DNA of 57,484 bases from Candidatus Pacearchaeota archaeon (GCA_023139205.1 JAGLOA010000004.1:1-57484); one strand, 5' to 3'; positions 1,671 to 43,500 are shown, numbered from the stretch's first letter. The notes: generated by a model from the sequence alone, not told the origin. A program made the numbers and translations.

Positions 1671-1743
1671 GTCTCTGTAGCTCAGGGTTTAGAGCGCGGC
1701 TCTCATGAGGCCGAGGTCGAGGGTTAAAATCCCTTCAGAGACA
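1671..1743 (+). tRNA. tRNA with CAT anticodon (elongator Met or Ile2), atypical T-loop
   Basis: Cloverleaf: GTCTCTG/CAGAGAC acceptor, GCTC/GAGC D-stem, CGGCT-CTCATGA-GGCCG anticodon arm, GAGGG-TTAAAAT-CCCTT T-arm. Confidence 0.8.
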
Positions 1744-1851
1744 TTTCCTCGACCGAGAAGAGGTCGCGAGGTTATTGAACAGCGACAAATTTCTAAGATT
1801 AATAACGTCTTTTCGATGACTGAGTCAGAGTTAAAATCTCCTCAGAGACAT
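1723..1851. mobile_element. short structured insert flanked by duplicated tRNA-CAT 3' end
   Basis: GTTAAAATCCCTTCAGAGACAT (1723-1744) vs GTTAAAATCTCCTCAGAGACAT (1830-1851), 20/22 identical; hairpins in between. Confidence 0.6.
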
Positions 1852-3012: not shown

Positions 3013-4683
3013 TTACTTTGTTCTTGTATGGATTAATTTTCCAAATTTTTCAAAATTAATTTCTTCTTCAATTAATTTTTTCAAAACTTCTCTAAGATCA
3101 GAAATTTTAACACGAATTTGTTGAGTTGTATCACGAAATCTTATTGTGACATCTTTCTTTTTATCTGAATCCCCGTCAATAGTTATACAATAAGGAGTTC
3201 CTATTTCATCATTACGCGCATATCTTCTTCCAATACTTCCAGATTTATCATAACAAACATTCCAATCTTTTTTCAATTCATAAACAATATCCTCTGCGAT
3301 CTTTTCAAATTTTTTCTGTTTGATAATTGGAAATACTGCTGCTTTTATTGGAGCAAGTTTAGCAGGAATTTTTAAAACAACATTTTTTCTTTTTTCATCA
3401 TAACAATATGAATTTGCTAAAACAGCTAAAAAAATTCTTTCCATCCCAAAAGTTGGTTCAATAACCCTTGGCAAAACTTTTTTTCCATATTTCTCGTCGA
3501 ATATTTCCAAATTTTGTTTGCTTTCATCTTGATGTTGAGTTAAATCAAATTGTCCCCTATTAGCATTCCCTGCAACTTCTTTGCTTCCAAAAGGATATTC
3601 ATAATCAATATCAAAAGTTGCAGAAGAATAATGGGAAAGTTCATCTTTAGTATGTTCTCTAATCTTAATATTATTCAAATTCAAACCTCTAAACCACAAA
3701 ATTTGTTCTGCAAGCCAATAAGCATGCCACTCTCCTAATTTATTTTTTTCTAAAAGTTCTTTTATTGTAATTTCTTTTAAATCTTGCTTTCCTTTATTTT
3801 GAGTTTCTTCGTCTAAAAATTTAAATTTACAATTTAAATGCCTAGAAGTTAATAAATCACATTTTTTTTCTTCAGGATTAATAAAAAATTCAAACTCTCC
3901 AATATGAAATTCCCTGCTCCTAAATAAGAAATCTCTTGGAGCAATCTCATTTCTAAAACATCTCCCAATTTGTGCAATTCCAAAAGGCAATTGCATTCTG
4001 GAAGTTTGCTGGACTAATTTAAAATTCATAAACATAGATTGAGCAGTTTCTCCTCGAAGATATGATTTAACAGACTCCAAAGCTCCAATAGTTGTCTCAA
4101 ACATTAAATTAAAATCACCTCTAACCTCATAATCTCCACCACACTCACATTTAACTTTCCCTTCCTCAGATTTATCAATCTTTGTCGCTTTTTTACATTT
4201 TTTACAAACAACAGCAAGATCAGAAAAATTTTCTAAATGTCCTGAAGCTTTCCAGGTTCGAGGATGAGAAATAATACTCGCCTCAATTCCAACAACATTA
4301 TCTTTTTTCCTCACAAAAAAATTCCACCAATTATCTTTAATATTCTTAAACAACTCTATCCCAAAAGGACCAAAATCCCAAAAACCAGAAAACCCCCCAT
4401 AAACATCACTAGATCTAAAAACAAATCCTTTTCTTTTACAAAAACTAGCTAAATCTTCAATTGAAATTTTCTCTCTCTTTAGTTCAACAACAGATTTATC
4501 CACAGAATTTTTTGTTTCTTCTTTTCTCCCCTCAAGAATATCTTTTGCTTTTTTCTCAGCTTCTTTTTTTTCTTTTCCAAGATAAGCAAGAGTTTTTGTT
4601 TTTACTTTTCCTTCAACTCTTTTATTTTCATTAAGATAATAATAATCATTCCCATGAATTTTTTTCTTAACAACAAAAGCCAT
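3013..4683 (-). CDS. glyS: glycyl-tRNA synthetase (alpha2 type) with extra N-terminal domain
   Basis: KRKGFV...YGGFSGFWDFGPFG, LRGETAQSMF, GIAQIGRCFRNEI.PR.FLFRSREF, VIEPTFG, GSIGRRYARNDEIGTP; start placed at ATG 4683 (MAFVV). Confidence 0.95.
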   Translation of the reverse strand: MAFVVKKKIHGNDYYYLNENKRVEGKVKTKTLAYLGKEKKEAEKKAKDILEGRKEETKNSVDKSVVELKREKISIEDLASFCKRKGFVFRSSDVYGGFSGFWDFGPFGIELFKNIKDNWWNFFVRKKDNVVGIEASIISHPRTWKASGHLENFSDLAVVCKKCKKATKIDKSEEGKVKCECGGDYEVRGDFNLMFETTIGALESVKSYLRGETAQSMFMNFKLVQQTSRMQLPFGIAQIGRCFRNEIAPRDFLFRSREFHIGEFEFFINPEEKKCDLLTSRHLNCKFKFLDEETQNKGKQDLKEITIKELLEKNKLGEWHAYWLAEQILWFRGLNLNNIKIREHTKDELSHYSSATFDIDYEYPFGSKEVAGNANRGQFDLTQHQDESKQNLEIFDEKYGKKVLPRVIEPTFGMERIFLAVLANSYCYDEKRKNVVLKIPAKLAPIKAAVFPIIKQKKFEKIAEDIVYELKKDWNVCYDKSGSIGRRYARNDEIGTPYCITIDGDSDKKKDVTIRFRDTTQQIRVKISDLREVLKKLIEEEINFEKFGKLIHTRTK

Positions 4684-5674: not shown

Positions 5675-6571
5675 CTATTCGACCTCAAAATCATCTAAAT
5701 CTTTAGCTACAAAAGAATTTTTGAAAACTTTTTTTGCTTCATCCAAAATTTTTTTAAAATTATTCTCATATCTTTGACTTATATGAGTTAAAACAAGTTT
5801 TTTTGATTTAGATTTTTTGGCAATTTCTCCAGCTTGTGTTGAAGTCAAATGTAAATGTTCTTTAGCCTGATCCTGCAAATCAGAACCAAAATTTGACTCG
5901 CAAACAAGTAAATCAGAATTCTTTACAAAAGGAACAATCTCCTTGTTATCTAAAGTATCTAAAACAAAAGAAATCTTCTTGTCATCTTCTTTAAAAGTTA
6001 AATTCTTTACCAAATATTTTTTTCCCTCATAAGAAATATTTTTTCCTTGTTTTAACTTTTGCAACAAAGGACCTAAAGGCAAACCAGATTTTTTCAATTT
6101 GTTCTTATCAATTCTCCTCTGACCTTTTTTCACAAAACAATAAGCATTACACGGAATCCCATGCTTCATTTTTTCAGATTCAAGAAAAAAATCATCTGTT
6201 TCAAAAAATTTCCTATCAACCTCTTCAACAAAAATCTTATAATTTTTCTTAAAACCAAAAACTCTCAATAAATCTTTCATAAAAAGTTTAGTTCCTTTTG
6301 GACCATAAATAAAAAGAATTTTATTATAACCGCTTAAAGCCAAAGTAGACAATAAACCAGGTAGTCCTAAAACATGGTCTCCATGCAAATGAGTAATTAA
6401 AATCCTAGTTATCTTACAAGGATTAAGTCTGGCTTTTCTAAATTGCCTTTGAGTCCCTTCCCCGCAATCTACTAAAATATTCTCTTCATTATAAGTCAAC
6501 AAAATAGCTGAATGATTTCTTTTAGCACTTGGAATCTGATCTGCAGTTCCCAAAAAATTTATCTTTATCAT
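5675..6571 (-). CDS. rnz: ribonuclease Z
   Basis: FLGT...RN, LVDCGEGTQRQ, THLHGDHVLG, HLHLTS, LTHISQRY; start moved to MIKINFLG at 6571. Confidence 0.93.
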   Translation of the reverse strand: MIKINFLGTADQIPSAKRNHSAILLTYNEENILVDCGEGTQRQFRKARLNPCKITRILITHLHGDHVLGLPGLLSTLALSGYNKILFIYGPKGTKLFMKDLLRVFGFKKNYKIFVEEVDRKFFETDDFFLESEKMKHGIPCNAYCFVKKGQRRIDKNKLKKSGLPLGPLLQKLKQGKNISYEGKKYLVKNLTFKEDDKKISFVLDTLDNKEIVPFVKNSDLLVCESNFGSDLQDQAKEHLHLTSTQAGEIAKKSKSKKLVLTHISQRYENNFKKILDEAKKVFKNSFVAKDLDDFEVE

Positions 6572-6670
6572 AAAAGAAAAAAGATAAACTGATTTATAAT
6601 GTTTTCTTAAAGTTCCAACTAAAAATAAAACATCAGAATTATACCTAGCGAAAATCAACAGGCACAACGC

Positions 6671-7513: not shown

Positions 7514-8437
7514 ATGTCCTTTATAAAAAAATGCCCTGAATGTGGAAGTATAAACATAACATATGATGCACATTTAGGAGAAGTAATTTGCAATGATTGT
7601 GGATTAGTTATTGAAGAAAAAATGGCTGACACAGGAATTGATTTACAGGGAAGATTTGACAAAGATGAAAAAAAAGGAAGAGGTGGAGCACCAATCAGTA
7701 TGCAAAAATTTGATAAAGGTCTCACAACAAACGTAGGAGAAATTTCTGACATATACAGATTAGAACCAAAACAAACAAGAAAATTCTTAAGATTAAAAAA
7801 ATGGCAAGAAAGAGTTTCTACAAGTATTGAAAGAAACTTAAGACTCGCAATGGCAGAATTAAGAGTTATTGCCTCTTATTTACATTTGCCTAATGTTGTA
7901 AGAGATGAAGCATCAAGAATTTATAACTACGTTTTACAAAGAAGTTTGGTAAGAGGAAGAAGCATGGAATCAGTAATAGCAGCTTGTTTATATGCTGCAT
8001 GCAGATCATACAACATCCCCCGAACACTAGATGAAATGGCAACTGCATCAGATGTAGAAAGAAAAGAAATAGGAAGAACATACAGATTTATCATAAGAAA
8101 ACTAGGAATCAAAGTAACTCAAAGCTCTCCTAAAGATTATATCTCAAGATTTTCATCTGTTTTGAAATTATCCCCAAGAACTCAAAACGATGCTTTAAAA
8201 GTTTTAAGACAAGCAGAAGAAGTTGAATTAACCTCGGGTAGAGGTCCTGCAGGAATTGCAGCAGCAGCATTGTATGTAGCTGCTTTAATGAATGATGAAA
8301 AGAAAACCCAAAGAGAAGTTGCAGACATAGCAGGAATAACAGAAGTAACAATAAGAAATAGATATAAAGAATTAATAGAAAGATTAAAGCTAGAAGATAA
8401 AATAAAACAAAAAGAAGTTGAATCTAAAAAGAAATAA
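7514..8437 (+). CDS. tfb: transcription initiation factor IIB
   Basis: CPECGS...GEVICNDCGLV zinc ribbon; RGRSMES, PRTLDE, SGRGPAG, TQREVADIAGITEVTIRNRYKEL. Confidence 0.96.
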   Translation: MSFIKKCPECGSINITYDAHLGEVICNDCGLVIEEKMADTGIDLQGRFDKDEKKGRGGAPISMQKFDKGLTTNVGEISDIYRLEPKQTRKFLRLKKWQERVSTSIERNLRLAMAELRVIASYLHLPNVVRDEASRIYNYVLQRSLVRGRSMESVIAACLYAACRSYNIPRTLDEMATASDVERKEIGRTYRFIIRKLGIKVTQSSPKDYISRFSSVLKLSPRTQNDALKVLRQAEEVELTSGRGPAGIAAAALYVAALMNDEKKTQREVADIAGITEVTIRNRYKELIERLKLEDKIKQKEVESKKK

Positions 8438-8484
8438 ATTCTAATTCTAAAACTTTTTATAGCATAATCTCTAAATAAATTTAA

Positions 8485-8568
8485 GCGGAGATGCTGGAGT
8501 GGTCAAACAGGACAGACTCAAAATCTGTTGGCTTAGTGCCTACGAAGGTTCGAATCCTTTTCTCCGCA
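8485..8568 (+). tRNA. tRNA-Leu(CAA)
   Basis: GCGGAGA...ACAGA-CTCAAAA-TCTGT, long variable arm, GAAGG-TTCGAAT-CCTTT-TCTCCGC-A. Confidence 0.95.
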
Positions 8569-8658
8569 TATCATTTGATTCGAAGCCTTGGGTTTCATTT
8601 GGATGCTAAGCAGACGAATGACGGAGAGTGAAACGACCCACGAATCCTTTTCCTGCAT
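8551..8658. mobile_element. short structured insert flanked by duplicated tRNA-Leu 3' end
   Basis: CGAATCCTTTTCTCCGCAT (8551-8569) vs CGAATCCTTTTC-CTGCAT (8641-8658); hairpin GAAGCC-TTG-GGTTTC in the insert. Confidence 0.6.
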
Positions 8659-8745
8659 TATCTTATCACAGATAATATATTAGAATTTGTCAGTCGCTTA
8701 AATTCAAGGAAGTTTTAAGTGCCTGCATTTGGTTCTCCACCTTGT

Positions 8746-11700
8746 CTACCTAACAGGAGTCCAAAATATATAAACAGGATGTCTATTATCTTTTAAAGAA
8801 ATTATTCTATATGTATAAACATGACACCACTCTTTCTCATATTTGTTTTTATTCTTAGACTTAGGAGAAACTAAGTCATCAGTACACTCTTGTCTTTTTT
8901 CTTTATCAATATTCCGAACTTTCTGACCTTTCTCCACATAATCCATCCAATCAAAAACTTTTGCCAATCTTGTTTCTTTATTAATCCATTTAATAAAAAT
9001 AACATTATGAGGAGCACCTTCACTATGAATGATAGACAACAAATCCCCTGGCTGGATCTGGTCTAATTTATCTCTCTCAGGAAAGTCTTCAAAGTCCGCG
9101 AACTTACAAGCACTTCTCAATTCTACACTCTCAGGAACAGCAAAAATTGAATTTCCAATTACTTCTTTAAATTTAACAAAATCAGTATCTATATTTGCAA
9201 AAGTATATTCCCTGCCAACATTATCTGTATAAACACATCTATGATTAAAACCTAATTTTTTATAAAGAGCCATTACTGCTGAAAAACAATTCTCTCCTCT
9301 TTCTGGAATAACAATTGTTCCTTCCAGTTTTTCAGCAAGTTCTAAAACTTGATTTCCTAAATCCTCCCCAGTTTGATCTTCAGAAGAAGAAGAAGAAGAA
9401 GAAGAAGATTCAACTGAAGAACTTTCTCTTTCTTTTTCTTGTTGCTCCAAATCAAACTCCCTTACCCTTAATTCATATTCATCTAAAATATCATCTTGAG
9501 ACATATCCACAAAAGATTTATCTTCTGGGAGTTCTTTTTTAATAATTGGAATCTTTTTATCCCTCTTTTCTTCTAATAACTCTTTCAACCAAACCATATC
9601 TTTTTCCTTAGTAAAAAGCCCTGTTTTTTTCATCTCTTCATATTCCTTCTCACTTAACATTCCTTCATTATAAATTTTATTAACTAATTCAAAATTATCA
9701 CACCAAGCATATATCCCCCCACGAGTCCTCTCCTTATTCCCACATGCCTCCCCTATATTCTTTTCAATCTGAGACTCAACATCCTTTATAGCTAAATTAT
9801 ATGTCTCTCTATCAATCCCTTCCCTCTCTGTTTGATATTCTTCTGAAGAAGCTTCAATCTCAAGAACTCCTTTTGATTTCATAGTATGCCTACGTTTCTC
9901 TTTTCCCTCTTCATCTATTTTATAACAATAAATCTTAGCATAATACTTTCCAGGATTAAATAAATTAAATGTTTTAGTTCCACCAATAAGAGTTGACATT
10001 CCAAAAATAGTCTCATCTCCAATATCCAAGGGTAAATGAACCTTATTTGAATTAATTTCATATTTTACAATATCACAACCATGCTCAACATTTAAGATAA
10101 TCTTATTATTTTCTTGTTTAAATTCCACAGAATCTATTTTATACGTCTTTAGAGCAGTAATTTTTTCATCTTCTTCTTCAACTTTTTCAGGTTCTTCTTC
10201 CTTTGAAGCTTCTTTAGTAATTCCAGAAATCGTTGGATTAAAGATTACATAAACAGGATGATTTCCTGTTTCACTTATGTCTGTTATCTGATATCCAAAA
10301 ACAAGTTCATTTTGTTCATTTCTCTGCCAACCAAACAATTTTGCAATTCCTTTCCGCTCATCAACCCACTTAATAAAAATAACATTATGACCATTCCAAG
10401 GATCTGAAACAATAGATAAAATATCTCCAGGTTGGATTTTATCATATTTTTGTTTTACATTTACATCTCCAGAATTATAACGACATGTATCGGGATAAAC
10501 TAAAAAAATAGTTTGCTCTTTATCATTCTTAGAAATGCCCATTTCTCTAACATATTTTTTATTGTCCCCAGAAGAATCTTTTTCCCATTCAAGCGAATAT
10601 TTTTTCCCAACTTCATCAGAATAAGAACACACTCCTGCTTCAACTCCTGCTTTCTTATAAACATACATAACAGAACTCCAACAACTAGCACCTTCTGTAC
10701 ATAAATACTCCTTTATGATATCTTTTGCTGCAGAACTCTCATCTAATTCTTCAACAACTCTCAAAACTCTTTGTCTAGGGTCAGTTAATTTCAAAATATC
10801 TTCTCCAATTTCAACTCCTCCATCTCCAACAACCCCTGCATTTGTAAAAATAAGAACAGCCCCTTCATCAAAACCCATTTCATTTAAACTATTTATTAAT
10901 TCAAGAGTGCTTTGAACAGGTTTTTTCCCGTCCCACTTCCCACCTTTAACAACTATTGTCTGAACATTCATCCAATTTTTTTTATCAAAAGACCATTCCC
11001 ATTCATCATTCTTATGCCTAAAATAAAGAGGTGTTGCTCCTTTTTTCCCAACAGTAAAAATTCCTTTATGAGATAACTCAACATTTTCTGTAGATAATTC
11101 TGTACCCCAACTACCAAGCATAGTCTTTCCTTCATCATCCTCAAGAGTTCTTTCTATCAACAAATTTAATCCTTGTTCAAAATTAGGATTTTCTTTTTTC
11201 AATAATTTTATAAATTTTTCATTCTTTTCACCAAAATACCAATCTCTCCATTTTTTATCTTCAACATCCATTTCCTGAATATTTCTCCAAGGTTCCTCAT
11301 CAACATACCATTCCCATCCTTGATTAGAATATTTATAATACAAATTCCCATCAGGTTTCCCATCCTTAAACTCAAACACAAGAGAATTATAATCCACAAA
11401 CTTCTCTTCTTCCTCTTCATCAAAAATCTCTTCTTCATCAATTTCTTCCTCATTAATTATTGTCTTTATCTCTGGCTTTCTAACCAAACCAGCATAAGCA
11501 TCTCCCCTCAATAAATGCAGCCGAGCTTTCTCACTATTATAAAAAACCTTCTCTAAAAGTTCATTTATTAAATCGATTTGCTCTAAACCCTTTTTACCCT
11601 TAATCTTCTCAATTTCATCAAAGAAATCCTTCTGAGAAATATAGCCATCTCTATTTCTTAATACTTCTAAATAATCGTCTGTAACACCATCTAAAACTTC

Positions 11701-14700
11701 CTTTTCTATAGTTGTTACTTCTATTACATCCTTAACACTTTTAGTATCAAGCCAGCACTTTATTTTTTTATCTCCGCAATATCCTACTTCCAACCATCTT
11801 GCTCCTTCTCCTCCTGACTTAGCATCTGTTCCTTTTCCAGGATTATCAGTTGCACAAATCCGTATAATTCCTCTATCGTAAATTGCAGGATTAATCACCT
11901 CATCTGCCCCACCCTGAAGATTAGGAGTCAGCAAACTATAAGCGCTTGCACTTCCTGCAATACATCCTGTCTCTGTCTTAATATTTGTTTCTCCTGCCTG
12001 ACTTGCTAAATACTTATCTTCAACATAATTAACTGCAAAATTAGTTGAAACCTGTTTAAACCCACACTCTGGCTCCTGGTTATTAACCATAATGCACATT
12101 TCCTGATAACCAGAAGGAGCAGTAAAATCCTTTGTCTCAGAAGCATATCCTCCTGACGCAATATAACCAGAATCAACCATTCTTGTTGTTGCAGTATCCT
12201 GATAAAATGAACTCTCTGAACTTCCCTTTAAATAAACCCTGTAATAAACTCCAGAATCTTTTCCTGCATAAATATGATAAAACACTTTATATTGTGAAAT
12301 AGGCGGAACAGTTGCAGATGTAAAAGGCATCTCATCAAATCTTCCATGAAACTGAGTAGGTGAATCTGGTTCTGTCAAAGAATCTAATAAATTTCCTCCG
12401 TCAGGAAAAACCCCGGAAACATAAGACTTGCAAATTTCTCCTCCAATATCCTCTGCACTTCTTGCTTTAAATGCATCATAAGAATTTGCAGCATAATAAT
12501 CAGTAAAATAATTTACAGAATTTTCTGCATTATCCCATGCACTTTGAACTCCTAAATACTCTCCTCCACCGCGAGTATTTTGCCCCATCGCCATTTCCAT
12601 CATTTTAGGAATCATTATTTTCGCAAGAGGAAGTGCCTGCTTCCATAAAAACTCACACATATAAACACTATAAATCTCGTCACAAACCCCAATCATCTCC
12701 CCAGTATCTAAACTATGCTGTAAACAATCTCTATAAGAAGTAAAAATAGAAAGAAACCCATCTACTCCTGCTTTTATTCCAGTAAGACAAACTGGAATAT
12801 AAATCCCCTCCTTAATATTTGGCAAACATAATACAATGCTTCCAATTATTCCTGACTGAACAACATCTTTAACAGGATATGCTCCTCCAAAATCACATCT
12901 GCTTGAAGGACAAATAACAGGGTCGCATACATTAAATAATAAATTACAATCTTTAGGAGACATAAAATCCTGGCACTTCATTTCAGGAATATCCACAGCA
13001 GGATTGCAAACCCTAACATCCTGTCCATTAATTCTTACACTCTTCCCTGAACTTGCTGATTTATATTTCCTGGAAGCTTCCTCAACAGCTTCCTGAGCAT
13101 CTCTTATAACTTTTGACGCATCTCCTGGACTTAAACCTGCAAAAGTATTATATGGCTGTCCTGTCCCAGTATTAATCATCTGACAAATATCATCTCCCCC
13201 TTTATTTTCCTCTATTTCATTTTCTCCAACATTGCACACCCAAAAACTCGTAACTCTTCCAGATTCATCATAAGATTTTATTCCTCCAAAAACAGGCAGT
13301 GTCTGACCCACATAAGCATACCATCCATTTTTCAAATCAAAAGGCACAATCGCAGGAAGCCCCTTATACGGCTCTGTCTCATAATATCTCAAACAAGCAT
13401 AAGACTCTCCCAAAGAAGCTTTGTAAGTATTTTCATAAGAAGTTCTGTCATATTTTTTAAAAGATTTAAATTTTCCAACAATATCTTTTCTTTCTTCCCC
13501 AACTTGAATAATTCCATTTTTAATTCCTTCATAATCATAAACTTTATCGACAATATAATCTCTATTTGCCCTTTCTAAAACAGCAACATATTTTTTTCCA
13601 TTATAAGTAATAATCTCTACAGGATAATTTATTTCCTTACCTTCTTCATTTTTATCTTCTAAATTTACTCCCTCAATCTGATTCGAAACAATAGTCCCAC
13701 CAGAATAAGTTCCTACAATAGAACCCTCCTCCCCATAAGAAGTAACACCTAATTCCAAGTTACTTTTTTTCAATTCTTCTGCAAGAGTTTCTCTTTCAAC
13801 ACTAACCTCTGAAGTTTCTTGTATCTCATAAAGTTTTGAATAAATTCTCGCCTTAGCCAGCTCATTTTTCGGATCATCTTCCAAAATAAAAAAATCCTTT
13901 TTAATATCCCTTAAATCATCCAAATAAAGATATTGATTTTTCTTTTTATTTGAAAAAGCATTATGAATTGTAGAACCTTCTGAAAACTTAATTGATTCAT
14001 CAGGATTATTTGGATTAATCATACCCTCCCCATAATTTTCTAAATCTTGAAAAATCTCAGGACGCAGTCCATCCAAAACTTCATCCTCATCATAAACTTT
14101 TTCACCAAACAATCCTTCAGTAACCCCAACTTCACTTTGTATTTTTTTCATCTTTTCATTTACTTTTTGCATTGCCTTATATTCTACCTCAACATCCTTA
14201 TCAATCTCATCTGCATTATCATTCAAACATTCATCTACAGAATCATAACCATCAGCACAACGTGCATACCATCCTCCTTCACCCCTCATAACTTCTTGTC
14301 TTGCAATTGCCTTTCCCCCAGTATTTGCAAAAAAGTTCTTAACAGTCAACATAGCACCAACACCCAGACAAGCTGTTTTAAGCCCCTTCACAACCTTCCC
14401 AAGATCATCAGAAATCTTTGTCCATTTTTCAATTGTCTCATTCAACCCCTCAATTATCTCCAAAGTTTTTTCAGGAGAAAGTTTTATTGACCTCTTTTCA
14501 ATTCCAATCTTAAAACTAAAATTTGCTTCTGTCCCGGCATTATCAATATTTGAAATAACAGAAACTTTTGCAATTTTTTTCAGATTTATTTTATCCACTC
14601 TAATTTTATATTTATTTTTGCCAAGATTCGCCTCATAATCATCAAGCTTAATTGTTTTAGTAGTTCCAACATTCATTAATTCACCAACCCTTTCTCTAAT

Positions 14701-16719
14701 GCTTAACTTAATTTTTATAGAATCCTCATCTAATTCAATTAATTCAATACTCTCACCTCCTAAAAGAAATACCTCTGCACCTTTCACCAGTCTCTTTGAT
14801 TCACGTATTTTCTTTCCAGTTTTTTCATCCTCTCCAGAAACAAAAACCTCTGCACCATATTCCTCAAAACTCGGCTCATAAATTCCTTCAAAAGAAATTG
14901 TTCTAACTCTCCCATTAATCATAATATTTTCACTTGATATTACAGAACTCGAAAGTTTATACTCATCATCACATAAATTTAAATTTTTCTTAGATTTAGG
15001 ATATCTTTCCTTAAACTCCCCGCATAAATCTATTACAGTTTTTTTCTGGTCCATATCCCATGCAAGTATTATTTTCCTATACAAAGCTTGTTCCCCATAA
15101 GTTATTTCATTAGCTCCATCAATATACTCTTCAGAAGAAAAACTATCCAAAATATTATCATAATCCCTCATTGCTTTTTCATAATATCCTTCTTCACCAA
15201 GTTCTCTATTTTGTGCTCCTGCAAAACCAATAAAATCCATTTCCTTTAAATTTTTCAATTCTTCCACACCTTTCTTCACAAGTAATTCCAACCCCTGAAG
15301 AACTGCCCCCCCAGGAATTAATGCTATTACTCCACGAACAATCATCTCAGTAGTACTCATTTCATTTTTACCAGAACTTTTTTCATAAATCCACCCAACA
15401 GGATAACTCCCGGTTATTAAAAAATTTCCAAAATTATAAAGCCCTCCTCCAGAAACAGAAAATGCTCCCTTCATTAAATTCAATAAAAAATTCCCAGTAT
15501 CCTGTTGAGCAATTTTAGTTAAACCATGTAATCTCTTATAAATTTGTGTATTTTTAAATTCCTCAGAATTTTTTGCAGGACTAACAACAGGGATAATAAA
15601 TTTAGTTCCATCAAAAGTTTCTCCAATATAACCTAAATAAACAAATTTATTTTTCCCCTCAACCTCATACAATTGATCACCAATTCCATAACCTTCTTCT
15701 TTTGCTCCATCAAAATCCAAAATCACTCTTGGGCTAATACTTAAAGAAAAAGCTTTTTCTCCTTTACAACGAATCTTAATTTCCTGAACAAGCCCTTGTT
15801 TTTTTATACTATTTTTTACAACATAACAATTATTCTCCAAAAAATTCTCTTTCTCCTTAACTTCAACAACATCAGAACCCACCCTTAATTTAATTCTTGT
15901 ATCTGGGACTTCAAAACCATTTAATTTTAATTCCAAACCAGCTAAACAATCAAATCCAGGAAGATAAATTTTCTTGGAAGTTTCTCCTTTTTCTAAACTA
16001 ACAGTTGAAATTTTTTTAACATCGTCATAAATTGAAATTACAGCTCCGTCATCATTAATTGATTCTGCTCTCAAATATCCTCTTCCATCCCAAAATCCAT
16101 ATTGAATCTGCTTATCCTCCCACTCTTCATCATTAAGTTCTGAAAGATAAAAACTTGCATCACCAATACCAAAAGCATTTTTAATATCATATTTTATTTT
16201 TGCTGTCAAACGTCCTTCAACATATTCCGGCATTTCTGAAGAATTTTTTTGTTTTTTCAAAACTATAACCACATAACCAATATTATTCAAAACAGGAGAA
16301 TTAAGATTTCCTCTAACACCTAAAGCTGCTTTTGCAGGATGAAACCCCACATCTGAAACAAACTCTCTTGAAAATTCTTTTTCTGGAAAAGAAATACTTT
16401 CAATTGCTTCAACATCAATCAAAGGATTAATTTTTGTTGCACCAAGCTGACAAAACACAGGAACATTTTGCTCTTCAAGCAAATCACTTCTGACAACAGC
16501 AGGAGTGCATCCAAAAGGAGCAATCTGAATAACAAAATCCTGTCCAGCCTCGCACATTGATTTATCAAACTCCTGATATCCCCCCAAGCCAGTTCCTCCA
16601 AAATAAGATGCTCCAAAATTTGTCTCTGTATAAACTCCTGAAATAAATGAACTAGAAAAAATTACTAAAATTCCAACTAACAAAAACATTCCAAAATTAA
16701 TTTTTTTATTTATTTTCAT
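8746..16719 (-). CDS. giant exported protein (2657 aa) with Cys-rich core and two C-terminal NlpC/P60-like domains
   Basis: N-terminal hydrophobic signal; C-terminal repeats CWSSVMYVYKKAG...IQPGDILS...GHNVIFIKW and CFSAVMALYKKLG...IQPGDLLS...PHNVIFIKW. Confidence 0.75.
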   Translation of the reverse strand: MKINKKINFGMFLLVGILVIFSSSFISGVYTETNFGASYFGGTGLGGYQEFDKSMCEAGQDFVIQIAPFGCTPAVVRSDLLEEQNVPVFCQLGATKINPLIDVEAIESISFPEKEFSREFVSDVGFHPAKAALGVRGNLNSPVLNNIGYVVIVLKKQKNSSEMPEYVEGRLTAKIKYDIKNAFGIGDASFYLSELNDEEWEDKQIQYGFWDGRGYLRAESINDDGAVISIYDDVKKISTVSLEKGETSKKIYLPGFDCLAGLELKLNGFEVPDTRIKLRVGSDVVEVKEKENFLENNCYVVKNSIKKQGLVQEIKIRCKGEKAFSLSISPRVILDFDGAKEEGYGIGDQLYEVEGKNKFVYLGYIGETFDGTKFIIPVVSPAKNSEEFKNTQIYKRLHGLTKIAQQDTGNFLLNLMKGAFSVSGGGLYNFGNFLITGSYPVGWIYEKSSGKNEMSTTEMIVRGVIALIPGGAVLQGLELLVKKGVEELKNLKEMDFIGFAGAQNRELGEEGYYEKAMRDYDNILDSFSSEEYIDGANEITYGEQALYRKIILAWDMDQKKTVIDLCGEFKERYPKSKKNLNLCDDEYKLSSSVISSENIMINGRVRTISFEGIYEPSFEEYGAEVFVSGEDEKTGKKIRESKRLVKGAEVFLLGGESIELIELDEDSIKIKLSIRERVGELMNVGTTKTIKLDDYEANLGKNKYKIRVDKINLKKIAKVSVISNIDNAGTEANFSFKIGIEKRSIKLSPEKTLEIIEGLNETIEKWTKISDDLGKVVKGLKTACLGVGAMLTVKNFFANTGGKAIARQEVMRGEGGWYARCADGYDSVDECLNDNADEIDKDVEVEYKAMQKVNEKMKKIQSEVGVTEGLFGEKVYDEDEVLDGLRPEIFQDLENYGEGMINPNNPDESIKFSEGSTIHNAFSNKKKNQYLYLDDLRDIKKDFFILEDDPKNELAKARIYSKLYEIQETSEVSVERETLAEELKKSNLELGVTSYGEEGSIVGTYSGGTIVSNQIEGVNLEDKNEEGKEINYPVEIITYNGKKYVAVLERANRDYIVDKVYDYEGIKNGIIQVGEERKDIVGKFKSFKKYDRTSYENTYKASLGESYACLRYYETEPYKGLPAIVPFDLKNGWYAYVGQTLPVFGGIKSYDESGRVTSFWVCNVGENEIEENKGGDDICQMINTGTGQPYNTFAGLSPGDASKVIRDAQEAVEEASRKYKSASSGKSVRINGQDVRVCNPAVDIPEMKCQDFMSPKDCNLLFNVCDPVICPSSRCDFGGAYPVKDVVQSGIIGSIVLCLPNIKEGIYIPVCLTGIKAGVDGFLSIFTSYRDCLQHSLDTGEMIGVCDEIYSVYMCEFLWKQALPLAKIMIPKMMEMAMGQNTRGGGEYLGVQSAWDNAENSVNYFTDYYAANSYDAFKARSAEDIGGEICKSYVSGVFPDGGNLLDSLTEPDSPTQFHGRFDEMPFTSATVPPISQYKVFYHIYAGKDSGVYYRVYLKGSSESSFYQDTATTRMVDSGYIASGGYASETKDFTAPSGYQEMCIMVNNQEPECGFKQVSTNFAVNYVEDKYLASQAGETNIKTETGCIAGSASAYSLLTPNLQGGADEVINPAIYDRGIIRICATDNPGKGTDAKSGGEGARWLEVGYCGDKKIKCWLDTKSVKDVIEVTTIEKEVLDGVTDDYLEVLRNRDGYISQKDFFDEIEKIKGKKGLEQIDLINELLEKVFYNSEKARLHLLRGDAYAGLVRKPEIKTIINEEEIDEEEIFDEEEEEKFVDYNSLVFEFKDGKPDGNLYYKYSNQGWEWYVDEEPWRNIQEMDVEDKKWRDWYFGEKNEKFIKLLKKENPNFEQGLNLLIERTLEDDEGKTMLGSWGTELSTENVELSHKGIFTVGKKGATPLYFRHKNDEWEWSFDKKNWMNVQTIVVKGGKWDGKKPVQSTLELINSLNEMGFDEGAVLIFTNAGVVGDGGVEIGEDILKLTDPRQRVLRVVEELDESSAAKDIIKEYLCTEGASCWSSVMYVYKKAGVEAGVCSYSDEVGKKYSLEWEKDSSGDNKKYVREMGISKNDKEQTIFLVYPDTCRYNSGDVNVKQKYDKIQPGDILSIVSDPWNGHNVIFIKWVDERKGIAKLFGWQRNEQNELVFGYQITDISETGNHPVYVIFNPTISGITKEASKEEEPEKVEEEDEKITALKTYKIDSVEFKQENNKIILNVEHGCDIVKYEINSNKVHLPLDIGDETIFGMSTLIGGTKTFNLFNPGKYYAKIYCYKIDEEGKEKRRHTMKSKGVLEIEASSEEYQTEREGIDRETYNLAIKDVESQIEKNIGEACGNKERTRGGIYAWCDNFELVNKIYNEGMLSEKEYEEMKKTGLFTKEKDMVWLKELLEEKRDKKIPIIKKELPEDKSFVDMSQDDILDEYELRVREFDLEQQEKERESSSVESSSSSSSSSEDQTGEDLGNQVLELAEKLEGTIVIPERGENCFSAVMALYKKLGFNHRCVYTDNVGREYTFANIDTDFVKFKEVIGNSIFAVPESVELRSACKFADFEDFPERDKLDQIQPGDLLSIIHSEGAPHNVIFIKWINKETRLAKVFDWMDYVEKGQKVRNIDKEKRQECTDDLVSPKSKNKNKYEKEWCHVYTYRIISLKDNRHPVYIFWTPVR
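9383..9408. repeat. (GAA)8 microsatellite encoding a poly-Ser linker on the minus strand
   Basis: Eight tandem GAA units; protein reads VESSSSSSSSSEDQ. Confidence 0.85.
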
Positions 16720-32272: not shown

Positions 32273-33019
32273 CTATTTCTTCTTACCCTCAAAAGCCCTA
32301 AGAATTTCTAAAGGAAGTCCTAAAACAACAGTATTGCTTTTATCAGAACTTAAATCATTAAGAGTTTGCAATGTTCTCAAATGTAATGCTCCTGGCGCAC
32401 TTGCAAGAGTTTTCGCAGCTTTTGCCATATCAGTAGCAGCAATTACCTCTCCTCCAGCCTTAATAATCACCGCCCTTTTTTCCCTCTCAGCTTCAGCCTC
32501 TTTCCCTATTGTCCTCTTTAATTGCTCAGGGAGCTCAACATGCTTTAACTCAACTGAATTAACTTTTATCCCCCAAGGATCTGTTGCCTTATCCACAATC
32601 TCTCTAATCCTTTTTGAAACAGAATCTCTCTGACTCAATAACTCATCCAAAGAAACCTCTCCAATAACATCTCTCATAGTAGTCTGAGCTAATTGTGAAA
32701 CAGCATAATTAAAATCCTCAACCTCAAGGATTACTTTCTGAGAATCAACCACCTTATAATACAAAACAGCATTAACTTTAAGCGAAACATTATCTCTTGT
32801 AATAGAATCCTGGTCAGGAACATCTATTACTTTAACACGGATATCAACTCTTCTCCAGGTCTGTATGACTGGGACAACAATCCTCAAACCTGGCTTCATA
32901 ATCCCAACATATTTTCCAAAAGTAAATTTAACTCCTCTTTCATATTCTTTAACAACCTTTAATCCAGACAAAATAAAAACCACAACTAATCCAAGAATAC
33001 CAAATAAACTAAATACCAT
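32273..33019 (-). CDS. SPFH/band 7 (stomatin-like) protein
   Basis: EYERGVKFTFGK...PGLRIVVPVI...QDSITRDNVSL...AQTTMRDVIG...AEAEREKRA...LHLRTLQTL. Confidence 0.92.
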   Translation of the reverse strand: MVFSLFGILGLVVVFILSGLKVVKEYERGVKFTFGKYVGIMKPGLRIVVPVIQTWRRVDIRVKVIDVPDQDSITRDNVSLKVNAVLYYKVVDSQKVILEVEDFNYAVSQLAQTTMRDVIGEVSLDELLSQRDSVSKRIREIVDKATDPWGIKVNSVELKHVELPEQLKRTIGKEAEAEREKRAVIIKAGGEVIAATDMAKAAKTLASAPGALHLRTLQTLNDLSSDKSNTVVLGLPLEILRAFEGKKK

Positions 33020-33069
33020 TCACAAATATAAAATCAGGGATATATAAAACTTATGGGAAAAATTTGTTA

Positions 33070-33182
33070 AATAGCTCCTCCAGGATCCTCGAAGAGGTCT
33101 TGTCCCTCCTTGGGATTCTCGTGCTGGGAGCATTAGCGAGGCAATATCGAACCTTGGTTCGAATCAATAGCCCCACCAGGAT
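33070..33182. mobile_element. short multi-hairpin insert flanked by duplicated tRNA-Gln 3' end
   Basis: Minus strand ATCCTGGTGGGGCTATT (tRNA end) vs ATCCTGGAGGAGCTATT 96 nt downstream; four short hairpins between them. Confidence 0.65.
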
Positions 33183-33292
33183 TCGAACCTGGGTCCCAGC
33201 CTTACTTCAAGCTCCAAAGGAATTGGAGTAATGAAAGATGCAAGCATCTTACTTTCAAAGGGCTGAATACTTGACCACTGTACTATGGGGCT
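33168..33292 (-). tRNA. tRNA-Gln(TTG) with 52-nt intron at 37/38 (33203-33254)
   Basis: AGCCCCA/TGGGGCT acceptor, CAGCC-CTTTGA[intron]A-GGCTG, CCAGG-TTCGAAT-CCTGG; CTTT pairs with intron GAAG as a BHB-like central helix. Confidence 0.88.
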
Positions 33293-33325
33293 ATAATACT
33301 TAAGAAATTATATAATTTATAAGGT

Positions 33326-34117
33326 TTACTCAAACGCCCTTTCATAAAAAAGAGCCCGGTTAATATCTTGTTTTGGAGGGTTAACCCATCTAAAAAAATT
33401 CCTTAATTTAACAGGTTTGTATTTTTCTCCAATTAAAGTTGCTGCAAGTTTATTGTATTCTTCACTTGCATTAGAATTAGGATTATGGATAGTAGAGGGA
33501 GTAAATTCAGACAAAGCTTTCAAAACATTGAGATCATGGGGAATAACTGCCAGAACAGGGACTTCAACTGTTTTCTCAATATCTCTTAAAGAAACTTCAA
33601 ATTTTTTATTATTAACTTTATTTAAGATTAAACCAGTAATTGGTGTTCCTCTTTTCCTTGCATTTCTAACTGCTTTAATTGTAGTCCCCAAAGTAGGATA
33701 ATCAGGAGTAGTCACCACAAAAAGTTCATCAGAAGCCAACATTACTGCCAAAGTCTCATCATTTAAAGCAGGAGAAGAATCAATAAGAATGATATCATAT
33801 TTTTTCTTCAAAAATTTAATTCTATCTTTTAATTTCAAAGGATTTATCTCTTTTCTGTAATACATAGAAGAAGGAATCAAATCAAAATTATCTAATTCAT
33901 GAACAGCCTCGGTAACATTGTTCTCTCTATTCAAAACATGGTGAAGAGTTATCTCAGGGTCAAAAACATTTAAATGCAAACCAAGATTTGGAGCTGAAAG
34001 ATTTCCATCAACTAACAAAACTTTTTTATTAAATCTCGAAAGAGAAGCTCCTAAAGAAGAAACAACAGAAGTTTTCCCAACCCCTCCTTTAAGTGAAATA
34101 ATGCCGATAGTTTTCAC
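33326..34117 (-). CDS. MinD/ParA family ATPase
   Basis: KGGVGKT deviant Walker A, LLVDGNL, IILIDSSP, VTTPD. Confidence 0.88.
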   Translation of the reverse strand: MKTIGIISLKGGVGKTSVVSSLGASLSRFNKKVLLVDGNLSAPNLGLHLNVFDPEITLHHVLNRENNVTEAVHELDNFDLIPSSMYYRKEINPLKLKDRIKFLKKKYDIILIDSSPALNDETLAVMLASDELFVVTTPDYPTLGTTIKAVRNARKRGTPITGLILNKVNNKKFEVSLRDIEKTVEVPVLAVIPHDLNVLKALSEFTPSTIHNPNSNASEEYNKLAATLIGEKYKPVKLRNFFRWVNPPKQDINRALFYERAFE

Positions 34118-40505: not shown

Positions 40506-43500
40506 TTATTTCCTCCTCCTAACAAAAATTCCTAAAAAAATAATTCCAGCTAAAACGAAAATTCCAAGAATAATCCATAACCAAATTAAATTGCTTTTTT
40601 CTTGCATTTCTTCACCTTTAGCAATCTTTTCTTTTTCCTCTTCTTCTAAAATTGTTTCTGGTGTTACTTCTTCATAAAGAGACTTAATTGTAAATTCTGC
40701 TTTATTTGATGTAGAATTTATACTATCAAGGGTAACACTTAAATCATAATAATTATCTTCTGAAACTTCAAATCTTCTTGTATCTCCTATACTCAATGTA
40801 GCTATTTGAGGTGTTGAAGAAATATTAATCTTAGCAGTAGTGTTTGTCAATTCAATTAATTGAACATGATGGGTCTTATTTTCTACTTTTAATCTAAACC
40901 GACTATTTACAGGTATTGCTTTTGTATAACCTTCTTCAAATTGCTCATCACTTATAGTAAATGTGGGTATAGAAGATCCACCTCCGGAAGATCCACCTCC
41001 GGAAGAACTATCTGCAGGAGGGGTCGTAGCAGGCACACTTATTGTATAACTAGAAAAGCCTAATGAAGTCGGAATCTTACAATTAGTCTGAGAAGAATCT
41101 CCAGAACAACTTGAATAAGATTTAACATCTGAAGAATTACTTCCATCATCCGCTGCCCATGTTAAAGTATTGCTTGCACTATATGCCACAGGAAAAGACA
41201 ATTCAACAGAATCTCCAGAGCCACCCATTCCCAAATCACTAAGAAGAAAATTCCAGGCCTTTGTTGAAGAATTCATTCCTAAAATTTCATTGTCTGTATC
41301 AGCAATAAAAGCTCCGTCTAAACTTAAAGTCTTTGGTTTATACAAATCAGCCCCGACAAACTTAAAATGCATATCTTCATAACTAACAGTAATATTCATA
41401 TTTTTAGTTTGGGAAGTATTTGTCTTTATACCAATATCATAAGTATTAGTACTTGAATTATCATAATAAGTAAAATTCCCCGCATAAAGAGTACTGCCAT
41501 CTCCTGCAGTAATATTAACAACATAACCATCTGGTAAATCAATTCTAAATATAAAATTCTTATTTTGTTTTCTTGTTGTAAAATTCAAACACTTTGAAAT
41601 TCCGCAGTTTCCAGAAGGGTCGCAAACTTTCACCTTATAATAATAAGCAGTATTATTAATTAAATCAAATCCTAGGGTATCATTATTTAAATTAGCCCGG
41701 TGAAATGGTTTATAATCATCAAAACTAAAACCAATGTCCCCAAGATCATCTATATTTGGGGTTACATTTAAAGCACAAGTTGAACTTGTGTTATAGAACA
41801 TCAGAGAACCATTTGCAGGCTCATCTGTGTCATAAATTATAATTGCAGAGTCAGCCATCTTCTCAACCTTGCTAAACATTACAACAGGCGCTTTATTGTC
41901 ATTTGTATCAATTATAAAATTAAATGCTGTTCCGCTACCAACACATGCAGGACTAAATATACATTTAGGGTCAGCACAATCAGCATATCCATCACTATCA
42001 TCATCTACTCCGTTTTTGCAATCTTCAAACATTTGTGCCCCAAACTTCTGAAAACTCTTACACTTCGGATCTTTAATCATTGGATTAGAACAATCTACAA
42101 AATCAAAATCAATTGTTCCTGGAGTATAATAAGCAGGTCCTACTTCATCTGCACCATCTCCCTCCCCTGTTCCATTAAAACTCACTGCAAAAACCCTCAT
42201 AGGTTCTGTTATATCAAACAAATTAAAATTTTCCAAGGTTTCTTTTTCTATTGAAACAAATGGAGAACCCATATTAGAAGTAAAACAGGTAAACTTTTTA
42301 TCATCTGTAATAAACACATTTGTTGGAGCCCATTGCCATTCATTATTTGAATTTTGAATACACACATATAATTTTTTTGTTGTTTCTATACTTCCAGTAT
42401 CAGTATTATTTCGCACAAGATAATCAATATAAAATTCATAATTAGGATAACCTAAAGAAACTTCATTTGAATCAGTAGCATTACAATGACTCAAAGAACT
42501 TGAATCTCCGTCAGTATCTAAATACCACCTAAATCTTGTTGCATTTATCCCAATTCCAGAAGAAATAGTTTCTTGTCCGGGAATAGAAATAGGATAACCA
42601 TTACAAATAGCAGCATCTGTAATATTATAAACGCCGGTTCCAAATCCATAAGCATTATCTGTAACCCTCATTCCAAAACCCATAATATCTACATAACCAG
42701 AAATACCTGCTTCAGCACCTCCAAGATTATTATCACTATCCATACCAAGCATAACTGGCTCCCCTTGCATTTCACCAACTAAATCATAATTTCCTTTAGG
42801 ATCGCACCAACCATCTGGTTCATCTGCACTAAGATTATTATCCACACTAGTATCATTAAACCAAGTACAAGTATAATTATTCAACAAACAAGCAGTCATA
42901 TTTCCATCATATTGCATACAGCCAGTTACACCTCCACCACCACCTCCCATAATGTCAAAAAATTCAGGCATACACATATCAGTAGTATTTCTCCATTCAC
43001 AAATTCCACTTCTATTATCACTTGTACAAGCAGATTCATTTACATCCTCGCTAAAACAAACAGGTTCACAAATTTGTTCGGACGCAAACCATGTGCAATT
43101 CCCATTTGCCTGACAGCCACTTACATTTCCATCCATTGAAATACAATCTGCAAAAAGATAATAATCACAAAAACCACTAATAGAACCACCAGGATTAGTC
43201 CAATTAACCCAAGAACAATTTCCAGTACAACTTTCCTCAGAGCCAATATTCCAGCAAGAAGCACTATCTATTTTTGAGATATTAACATCACAAAAACCAG
43301 AACCAAAATCCACACTTGACTCATTTGTGCATCCTGGTTGAGCACCACACCCAGTTAAATTTCCATCCCACTGCCAGCAAATTTCTCCAGGCATACCACA
43401 ATGCCCGTTTGGTTCCCAGGTATTATTTATCCAAGTGCAATTAGTATTTCCAAAAGCAATTGCTGCTTCACAAGCTGTTTGATCATCATCATACATAGCA

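Follow-up and report, generated by a model that had tools for sequence, protein, structure and literature searches.

Probable small DNA insertions flanked by copies of the tRNA 3′ end in Candidatus Pacearchaeota

Introduction

What are the short, hairpin-forming segments that lie directly behind some of the tRNA genes in a 57,484-nucleotide (nt) stretch of DNA from a Candidatus Pacearchaeota archaeon (GCA_023139205.1 JAGLOA010000004.1:1-57484; hereafter the window)? The window is AT-rich archaeal DNA (57 kb, 31% GC), and the TFIIB protein that it encodes is 85–94% identical to proteins in Candidatus Pacearchaeota/DPANN genomes. The original prediction, made from the sequence alone, concerned a segment behind tRNA-Leu that shares its start and its first hairpin with a segment behind tRNA-Gln. 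Both were said to end in a degenerate copy of the tRNA end, and together they were taken to point to one element family, or to a tRNA-trailer RNA or ribozyme, at unrelated tRNAs.

Here, we describe these segments, called modules, and their counterparts in related genomes. Their general layout is a tRNA gene, 2–12 nt of spacer, an inverted copy of the T-arm (a′), a hairpin-rich core and a direct copy of the last 11–20 nt of the tRNA. Relatives differ through the gain, loss, exchange and tandem duplication of modules, and we consider that the modules are probably small non-coding DNA insertions at tRNA 3′ ends, either mobile miniature elements or decaying scars.

Methods

Genes for tRNAs were called with ARAGORN and Rfam. 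The comparison set comprised 80 TFIIB-linked loci from GTDB species genomes (L001–L080), which with the window gave 81 Pacearchaeota sequences, and loci L161–L172, fetched via their linkage to the MinD-like gene that neighbours tRNA-Gln. The 80 loci and the window include 232 tRNAs, 221 of them evaluable in a census of distal copies, for which a copy (≤1 mismatch) of the last 11 nt of the tRNA had to lie 10–260 nt downstream on the same strand. Rfam 15 was run at E ≤ 10 on positions 8400–8800, 32950–33350 and 1600–1950, and at the gathering threshold on the whole window. A covariance model, R1, was built from seven copies of the Gln module family.

Results

Three modules in the window

The sequence at 8551–8658 matches its earlier description. 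The shared start, TTGATTCGAA, has exactly two exact occurrences in the 57 kb, each no more than 8 nt from a tRNA 3′ end, and because it sits only behind tRNA-Leu and tRNA-Gln the earlier observation is confirmed. The far end of both inserts is, as had been proposed, a decayed tRNA 3′-end copy (Table 1). A third module with the same layout, which was absent from the original prediction, lies at 1744–1851 behind tRNA-Met. No such trailer is found behind the Cys, Arg and Thr tRNAs of the window. All three module-bearing tRNAs are complete and correctly paired without the module. The tRNA-Gln gene was missed by plain ARAGORN, was miscalled as Lys(ttt) when introns were allowed and was found by Rfam only.

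In the Leu module, the reverse complement of a′ is GGCTTCGAATC, compared with GG-TTCGAATC in tRNA-Leu. This a′ can pair either with GGTTTC (8591–8596) or with CGAATC of the distal copy, which closes the whole insert. The distal copy spans T-loop position 56 to one nucleotide beyond the discriminator base, and no pairing with the 5′ acceptor strand is possible. The first approximately 28 nt of the module, made up of the hairpin at 8577–8596 and the start of the core, are homologous to tRNA-Leu modules in L039 and L031. The Gln trailer (33072–33167, minus strand) terminates in TTCGAGGATCCTGGAGGAGCTA after the core, which has an extra internal segment relative to other members of its family. The Met hairpin reads CCTCGACC-GAGAAGA-GGTCGCGAGG, and its a′ is the reverse complement of the Met-specific GGTCGAGG. 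The Met distal copy and the tRNA-Met tail agree at 24 of 28 positions in an alignment that has one gap.

When compared with shuffled sequence, the Met distal copy scored 34 (shuffle maximum 21), and the Leu and Gln distal copies scored 24 and 23 (shuffle 95th percentiles 19 and 21, respectively). Taken alone, the Leu and Gln scores are borderline, but homologues with perfect repeats exist in other genomes, which removes the doubt. As their distal repeats have decayed, all three window copies are old. An identical sequence is present in four independent cold-seep metagenome runs, with contigs that span the Leu module with zero differences, and because the contigs of all four agree fully the module is not an assembly artefact. 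An empty-site allele of the Leu locus was not found when the metagenome contigs were laid down on it. The metatranscriptome matches were low-share contigs only, which probably reflect the tRNA words alone.

Downstream of the Leu module there is an older remnant that includes a decayed piece of tRNA-Leu (Table 1), which suggests repeated insertions at this gene. Trailers of tRNAs in L001, L015 and L027 also have the motif that precedes that piece. A giant 2657-aa open reading frame (ORF; 8746–16719, minus strand) ends 5 nt after the remnant. The anticodon of the TFIIB-adjacent tRNA-Leu varies in L001–L080 and the window; it is mostly TAG, with CAA, TAA with an intron, AAG and CAG+TAG tandems also seen, and this variation suggests frequent replacement of the tRNA-Leu gene at the locus.

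The shared start is not the signature of a family

Alignment of the complete Leu and Gln inserts was better than that of shuffled sequences (p ~0.0005), but the signal is carried by the start, which is derived from the T-loop, and the cores alone gave p = 0.12. The shared start TTGATTCGAA reads as the reverse complement of GGTTCGAATC, the T-loop sequence of both tRNAs, and the corresponding arm behind tRNA-Met differs. The shared start thus reflects conservation of the T-loop and does not define a family. The covariance model R1 misses the Leu module at E ≤ 10, and a single family that includes the Leu and Gln modules was rejected. What stands of the proposal of one element family at unrelated tRNAs is that the modules form a recurrent class of insert, found behind Leu, Gln, Met, Arg, Cys and Val tRNAs across Pacearchaeota, and that true sequence families within this class recur at different tRNAs.

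Tail copies lie downstream of about one in ten tRNA genes sampled

In the census, 22 of the 221 tRNAs had a distal copy of their tail downstream on the same strand; the three control positions together gave one match, on the opposite strand, and none upstream. Orphan copies of the terminal 15 nt of a tRNA numbered 15, and every one was downstream of the tRNA, 13 of them at 34–240 nt and two at approximately 1.2–1.3 kb. The repeats are 11–24 nt long and begin in or just after the T-loop, with 15 nt (ATCC...CTA) in the Gln family, and perfect repeats are frequent (for example, in L039, L069, L066 and L022). The inserts are 25–170 nt and non-coding, with the exception of a 1.2 kb insert described below. 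In each case, the functional tRNA gene stays intact, with a second, redundant copy of its tail downstream, and modules always have the same orientation with respect to the tRNA.

An exact inverted copy of the T-arm (≥7 nt) was found within the first 50 nt of the trailer for 16 of 28 module-bearing tRNAs, compared with 7 of 203 others. In minimum-energy folds of the window Leu, L039 and L022 Arg modules, base pairing between a′ and the T-loop portion of the distal repeat closes the insert. The insert thus has inverted-repeat ends, flanked in turn by a direct repeat. The inverted repeat is 6–9 bp in many copies and tracks the host tRNA; it is degenerate in the family designated B, the consensus fold of which has only a weak closing stem.

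Gain, loss and movement of cores between tRNAs

Filled and empty sites with clean boundaries were found when L030 was compared with L041 (Cys and Arg), L059 with L067, and L022 with L021 and L025. One core family is present behind Arg, Leu, Cys and Met tRNAs within 10 kb of L030 and behind tRNA-Val in L021. A second is shared by L022 Arg and L066 Cys, and a third by L169 Gln and L027 Leu. Copies of shared cores each have a repeat that matches their own tRNA. Tandem arrays with a common repeat were found at L022 Leu and in L005 and L166. Separately, the trailers of tRNA-Arg (3612–3633) and tRNA-Val (~15970–15995) in L041 have in common approximately 20 nt, TTCAGTTGA[GA]TGAAA[CT]GAAAT, without a flanking repeat. 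The Leu core of the window contains GAGAGTGAAACGA.

These families bear on the possibility that the modules arose by spontaneous local rearrangement, through template switching at the quasi-palindromic T-arm, with cores that are filler from elsewhere. A nick, strand displacement and fold-back of the displaced strand would be expected to give the order a-b-(spacer)-a′-a*-...-b, where a* is the second arm of the first hairpin, and the sequences of a′ and a* each follow that of the local tRNA. However, core families with conserved hairpins recur across tRNAs and genomes, and neither the burst of one family in L030 nor the conservation of the Gln family (see below) is explained, which makes this origin very unlikely.

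The 1.2 kb insert is a two-gene cassette that lies between a tRNA-Leu gene and a perfect 22–24-nt copy of its 3′ end in L005 and L002 (Table 1). It encodes an AbrB-like plus nucleotidyltransferase-like protein (272–293 aa) and a small protein (81–113 aa). The larger of the two is a member of an unnamed, widespread family of DPANN and lies beside a tRNA at just 3 of 80 metagenome loci. As it is rarely linked to tRNAs elsewhere, the 272-aa protein was rejected as the mobilising enzyme and the two genes are considered to be cargo.

The Gln family and the possibility of a functional trailer RNA

Modules homologous to that behind tRNA-Gln in the window were found in L162, L163, L164, L165, L166 (two tandem units), L167 and L168. 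A different module occupies the site in L169, and the site is empty in L161 and L171/L172. In each genome with the family, the distal 15 nt are identical to the tail of its own tRNA, with two mismatches in the window copy. The alignment supports three hairpins, of which hairpins 2 and 3 stay paired via double changes at six pairs; 89.7% of cells are paired, and 0–1 of 500 shuffles reached the observed value. The model R1 recovered L165 and L167, copies on which it had not been trained, and in 1.16 Mb it otherwise returned only weak matches to family B (E 0.8–4). Thus, the outcome that would have refuted the original prediction, no further copies and no covariation, did not occur; the Gln module has at least seven homologous copies elsewhere, with compensatory changes in two hairpins.

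Loci L164 and L165 encode the same MinD protein and differ at 16 positions in the 84-nt module (19%), compared with 13 in the remaining 2.65 kb (0.5%). Divergence concentrated in this way in the module indicates replacement or turnover and not slow decay. A second, small cluster of differences lies at approximately 1400–1499, upstream of the MinD-like gene.

Conservation of hairpins raises the possibility that the modules are functional structured 3′ trailer RNAs, co-transcribed with the tRNA, with hairpins and a tRNA-like tail that act in cis or in trans. They might, for example, control the folding or processing of the pre-tRNA, or RNase Z might release them as small RNAs. A T-run follows the distal copy and there is none after the proximal copy, and inserts that lie upstream of this T-run are probably co-transcribed. 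Constant orientation relative to the tRNA would also be expected of a trailer. The Gln family is kept at the same tRNA, with compensatory hairpin changes and with each genome's own tail, across genomes with MinD proteins that are only ~70% identical, and this conservation would also fit a functional RNA. The covariation and the Gln-specific conservation make the trailer RNA a serious rival. However, covariation in hairpins is equally expected if these are recognition hairpins of a mobile element, and modules are missing from close relatives and from most tRNAs. Cores are unrelated between families, the distal tails of the three window copies have decayed, and the fold z-scores of these copies (−1.1, −1.3 and −0.2) are unremarkable. 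The L164/L165 pair points to replacement, where a functional RNA should show conservation. Weighing both sides, we assign the trailer RNA a low probability.

Ribozymes, introns and other origins

The original prediction had also raised a self-cleaving ribozyme, HDV-like (hepatitis delta virus-like) or other, that would trim the tRNA 3′ end. Theta ribozymes occur at the 3′ ends of phage tRNAs, and such a reading is favoured only by the position of the modules directly behind tRNAs and by their hairpins. This reading was not borne out. On the tRNA strand of the three modules, no ribozyme or other non-tRNA Rfam family matched at E ≤ 10; Rfam returned tRNA plus chance or unrelated sub-threshold matches only, and at the gathering threshold the whole window gave tRNA alone. 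The nested double pseudoknot could not be drawn, no core is conserved across the modules, their fold z-scores are ordinary and they end in a copy of the tRNA tail, with no sign of a catalytic core. As a candidate RNase Z-like gene is present in the window (Table 1), a ribozyme is not needed, and we regard one as extremely improbable.

Boxes C, D′, C′ and D with guides of ~12 nt, as in C/D box small RNAs (sRNAs), were found on neither strand of the Leu and Gln modules. Interruption of tRNAs by an intron in the T-loop was rejected. All orphan 5′ halves of tRNAs were at contig ends, bar one that belongs to a tRNA with a canonical intron missed by ARAGORN, and no tRNA was found that is interrupted in the T-loop and lacks an intact copy. 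On hand inspection, a bulge-helix-bulge (BHB) motif could not be drawn at family B junctions, and the 3′ end of the would-be intron is not complementary to the exon end. Targeting of tRNA genes by Tn7-like elements was rejected because archaeal elements of this kind make 5-bp duplications. Pattern scans of IMG/VR for a virus or plasmid origin gave only L173, a chance match in a GC-rich coding region.

Other features of the window

A C/D-box sRNA-like candidate (AUGAUGA ... CUGA ... CUGA ... CUGA) is located at 1819–1881 on the minus strand, antisense to the Met distal copy. It has several sub-threshold matches to small nucleolar RNAs in Rfam (SNORD37, E = 0.005), and its D-guide is predicted to pair with the T-arm of tRNA-Met, with nucleotide 56 at the methylation position. 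The candidate is not conserved downstream of tRNA-Met in relatives. Other very large ORFs in the window are at 40509–45725, 46275–50480 and 52815–57410.

Table 1. Features of the three modules, their tRNA genes and related loci (positions refer to the window unless a locus is named)
Feature	Position	Strand	Basis or remark
tRNA-Met(CAU)	1671–1743	+	ARAGORN; Rfam
Met module: TTT, a′ CCTCGACC, loop, a* GGTCGCGAGGTTATTGAAC and core	1744–1823	+	sequence
Distal copy of tRNA-Met 3′ part, GTCAGAGTTAAAATCTCCTCAGAGACAT	1824–1851	+	alignment
Candidate RNase Z-like gene, HxHxDH motif	5675–6667		
tRNA-Leu(CAA), complete, correctly paired, functional proximal 3′ end	8485–8568	+	ARAGORN; Rfam 59.8 bits
Spacer TATCATTT, from discriminator base to insert	8569–8576	+	sequence
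Leu a′ GATTCGAAGCC, inverted T-arm copy of adjoining tRNA-Leu	8577–8587	+	sequence comparison
Hairpin loop TTG, then arm a* GGTTTC (direct T-arm-start copy, decayed)	8588–8596	+	fold
Leu core, 44 nt, non-coding, no database family	8597–8640	+	Rfam
CGAATCCTTTTCCTGCAT, decayed direct copy of tRNA-Leu 3′ end CGAATCCTTTTCTCCGCAT	8641–8658	+	alignment
Older remnant: motif TCGCTTAAATTCAA, then decayed tRNA-Leu piece AGTGCCTGCATTTGGTTCTCCACC	8686–8741	+	sequence comparison
Distal copy of tRNA-Gln 3′ end, TTCGAGG plus ATCCTGGAGGAGCTA, two mismatches to tRNA ATCCTGGTGGGGCTA	33072–33093	−	alignment
Gln core, family hairpins 2 and 3	33094–33145	−	alignment; pair counts; covariance model R1, 66 bits
Gln module start, TT, a′ GATTCGAACC, AA and a* GGTTCGAT (hairpin 1)	33146–33167	−	alignment; fold
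tRNA-Gln(UUG), 54-nt canonical intron	33168–33292	−	Rfam 50.8 bits; orthologues called Gln(ttg)
tRNA-Gln module of L164 and L165	2461–2544 in both		differences include a compensatory hairpin change
Two-gene cassette, ~1.2 kb, tRNA-Leu to perfect 22–24-nt 3′-end copy	L005 11159–12400; L002 3866–5140		opposite orientations

Discussion

Insertions or integrase scars

Several findings weigh against the view that the modules are insertions made by an element of their own. Neither the inserts nor the 27 window ORFs scanned yielded an integrase, a transposase or Cas1, with housekeeping genes alone identified by Pfam in these ORFs, and no autonomous partner with the same termini was found in 1.5 Mb of fetched loci or in IMG/VR. 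Repeats start at tRNA positions 54, 56, 59 or 63, a looser spread than a fixed-stagger transposase would give. The a′ arm follows the T-arm of each tRNA (GAATTGAACC for Val, GGGACTC for Cys and the arm given above for Met), which a simple terminal repeat borne by the element does not predict. The distal copies at the Arg tRNAs of L005 and L022 are perfect Watson–Crick partners of the 5′ acceptor strand, and the functional ends make a U·G pair. The Met distal copy of the window is likewise nearer to a functional tRNA-Met allele in L035 (T-stem AGGAG/CTCCT) than to the adjacent gene (score 26 vs 21). Distal copies that look original in this way favour an element that brought its own, attP-like tRNA end. 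The conservation of the Gln family across divergent genomes and the fact that casposons, the closest parallel (see below), have not been reported from DPANN in the literature count on the same side. As variable starts, a tRNA-tracking arm and original-looking distal copies misfit a simple model, our commitment is limited to DNA insertion.

The original-looking copies are what classical integrase scars would leave, if a virus or plasmid bearing attP had supplied a new tRNA end and deletions had then left attL, short arms and attR. Fragments of tRNA genes from integrated elements are well documented in archaea (PMC9897764; PMC3293823). Like the modules, they can be partial 3′ copies downstream of an intact gene, in the same orientation and sometimes with an original-looking distal end (PMC9897764), and the repeats described here span the T-loop (in Met, approximately the anticodon loop) to the tRNA end, as known att sites in tRNAs do. 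However, no insert includes an integrase gene or fragment or an element body, and 13 of the 15 orphan copies are within 240 nt of the tRNA. The same core behind four L030 tRNAs, each with a tRNA-specific repeat, is hard to reconcile with a fixed attP, and the relative L041 is empty at Cys and Arg. Cargo is found in both orientations, and random, independent deletions would not leave recurrent 50–90-nt cores in which hairpins are conserved, nor is an inverted T-arm copy a feature of such scars. We therefore regard integrase scars as unlikely and retain small insertions as the preferred explanation.

Comparison with known systems

The geometry of the inserts resembles that of casposons. Casposons insert at tRNA 3′ ends, often of tRNA-Leu, with 14–35-bp duplications, and form tandem arrays, occur in both orientations and leave solo remnants (PMC4779613). 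TCAAATC, a T-loop motif in tRNA-Pro, is required 9–15 bp upstream of the cut by the casposase of Aciduliprofundum boonei, which makes a 14–15-bp duplication and can integrate short single-stranded oligonucleotides (PMC6614799). The modules have in common with casposons the tRNA 3′-end target, flanking direct duplications, tandem arrays that share repeats and both orientations. However, casposons are kilobase-sized and encode Cas1 and PolB, whereas modules are 25–170 nt, apart from the 1.2 kb exception, and non-coding, with no Cas1 seen. The casposon duplication begins 8 bp after the T-loop motif and so includes the last ~4 nt of the tRNA and flanking sequence, whereas that of the modules begins in or right after the T-loop, spans the whole tRNA tail and is less constant in length.

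Miniature inverted-repeat transposable elements are also small, non-coding and multi-copy, with inverted then direct repeats, presence/absence polymorphism and bursts in single genomes. The modules differ in that their inverted repeat is T-loop sequence that follows the local tRNA, their duplication is at least 11 bp and lies in a gene end, and their target and orientation specificity are strict; no parent transposon was found in the fetched loci or in IMG/VR. Tyrosine recombinase systems provide a further analogy. In integron attC and CTX phage attP, a hairpin stem imitates a double-stranded target, much as a′/a* may imitate the T-box, and short cassette arrays between repeats, some of them non-coding, recall integrons, as does a toxin–antitoxin-like two-gene cassette in either orientation. 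However, no tyrosine recombinase is linked to the modules, the repeats of an array all match the resident tRNA tail, and in some families the position of the core misfits simple single-strand exchange.

BHB introns are found in the same lineage, including in tRNA-Gln, and like the modules have segments complementary to a tRNA exon. Families of archaeal tRNA introns reportedly move between tRNAs. Unlike BHB introns and split tRNAs, the modules begin after the discriminator base of a tRNA that is complete without them.

A possible mechanism

If the modules are insertions, they enter between the mature 3′ end of the tRNA and its terminator. An enzyme may read T-loop DNA as a landmark and make a staggered cut across the tRNA tail, which would generate a target-site duplication of ~12–15 bp, sometimes longer. 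The insert would then be co-transcribed as a 3′ trailer and trimmed by RNase Z, and because RNase Z would remove the trailer the insertion is presumably harmless to the tRNA. To our knowledge, the casposase, a proposed ancestor of CRISPR spacer integration, is the only characterised enzyme that reads the T-loop at tRNA ends.

A more far-reaching proposal, which we consider quite unlikely, is that tRNA tails are acceptors for a Cas1-like or other integrase that builds CRISPR-like mini-arrays, or that the modules represent a new class of hairpin-guided miniature elements. In the first case, the T-loop would act as 'leader', the duplicated tRNA tail as 'repeat' and inserts of 25–110 nt as 'spacers'. 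In the second, the T-box hairpin of the miniature element would imitate its target. If the first were true, the mini-arrays would be a living analogue of the proposed transition from casposons to CRISPR.

Significance

Insertions that target tRNA ends and have a flanking repeat are a known kind, and these mini-insertions appear to be a variant not previously described; full-text literature searches found no description of mini-insertions in tRNA tails in DPANN or other archaea. Because such an insert accompanies roughly one tRNA gene in ten in the Pacearchaeota sampled, it is a common and so far undescribed trait of a major archaeal group that is uncultivated. Annotation of tRNAs is affected by the presence of pseudo tRNA ends and long trailers. 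The tails of tRNAs are hot spots of DNA gain, the two-gene cassette included, and the inserts point to an integration activity that reads the T-loop. If discovered, the enzyme would provide an insertion system that is small and site-specific, and perhaps a naturally occurring form midway between the insertion of transposons and arrays of repeats and spacers.

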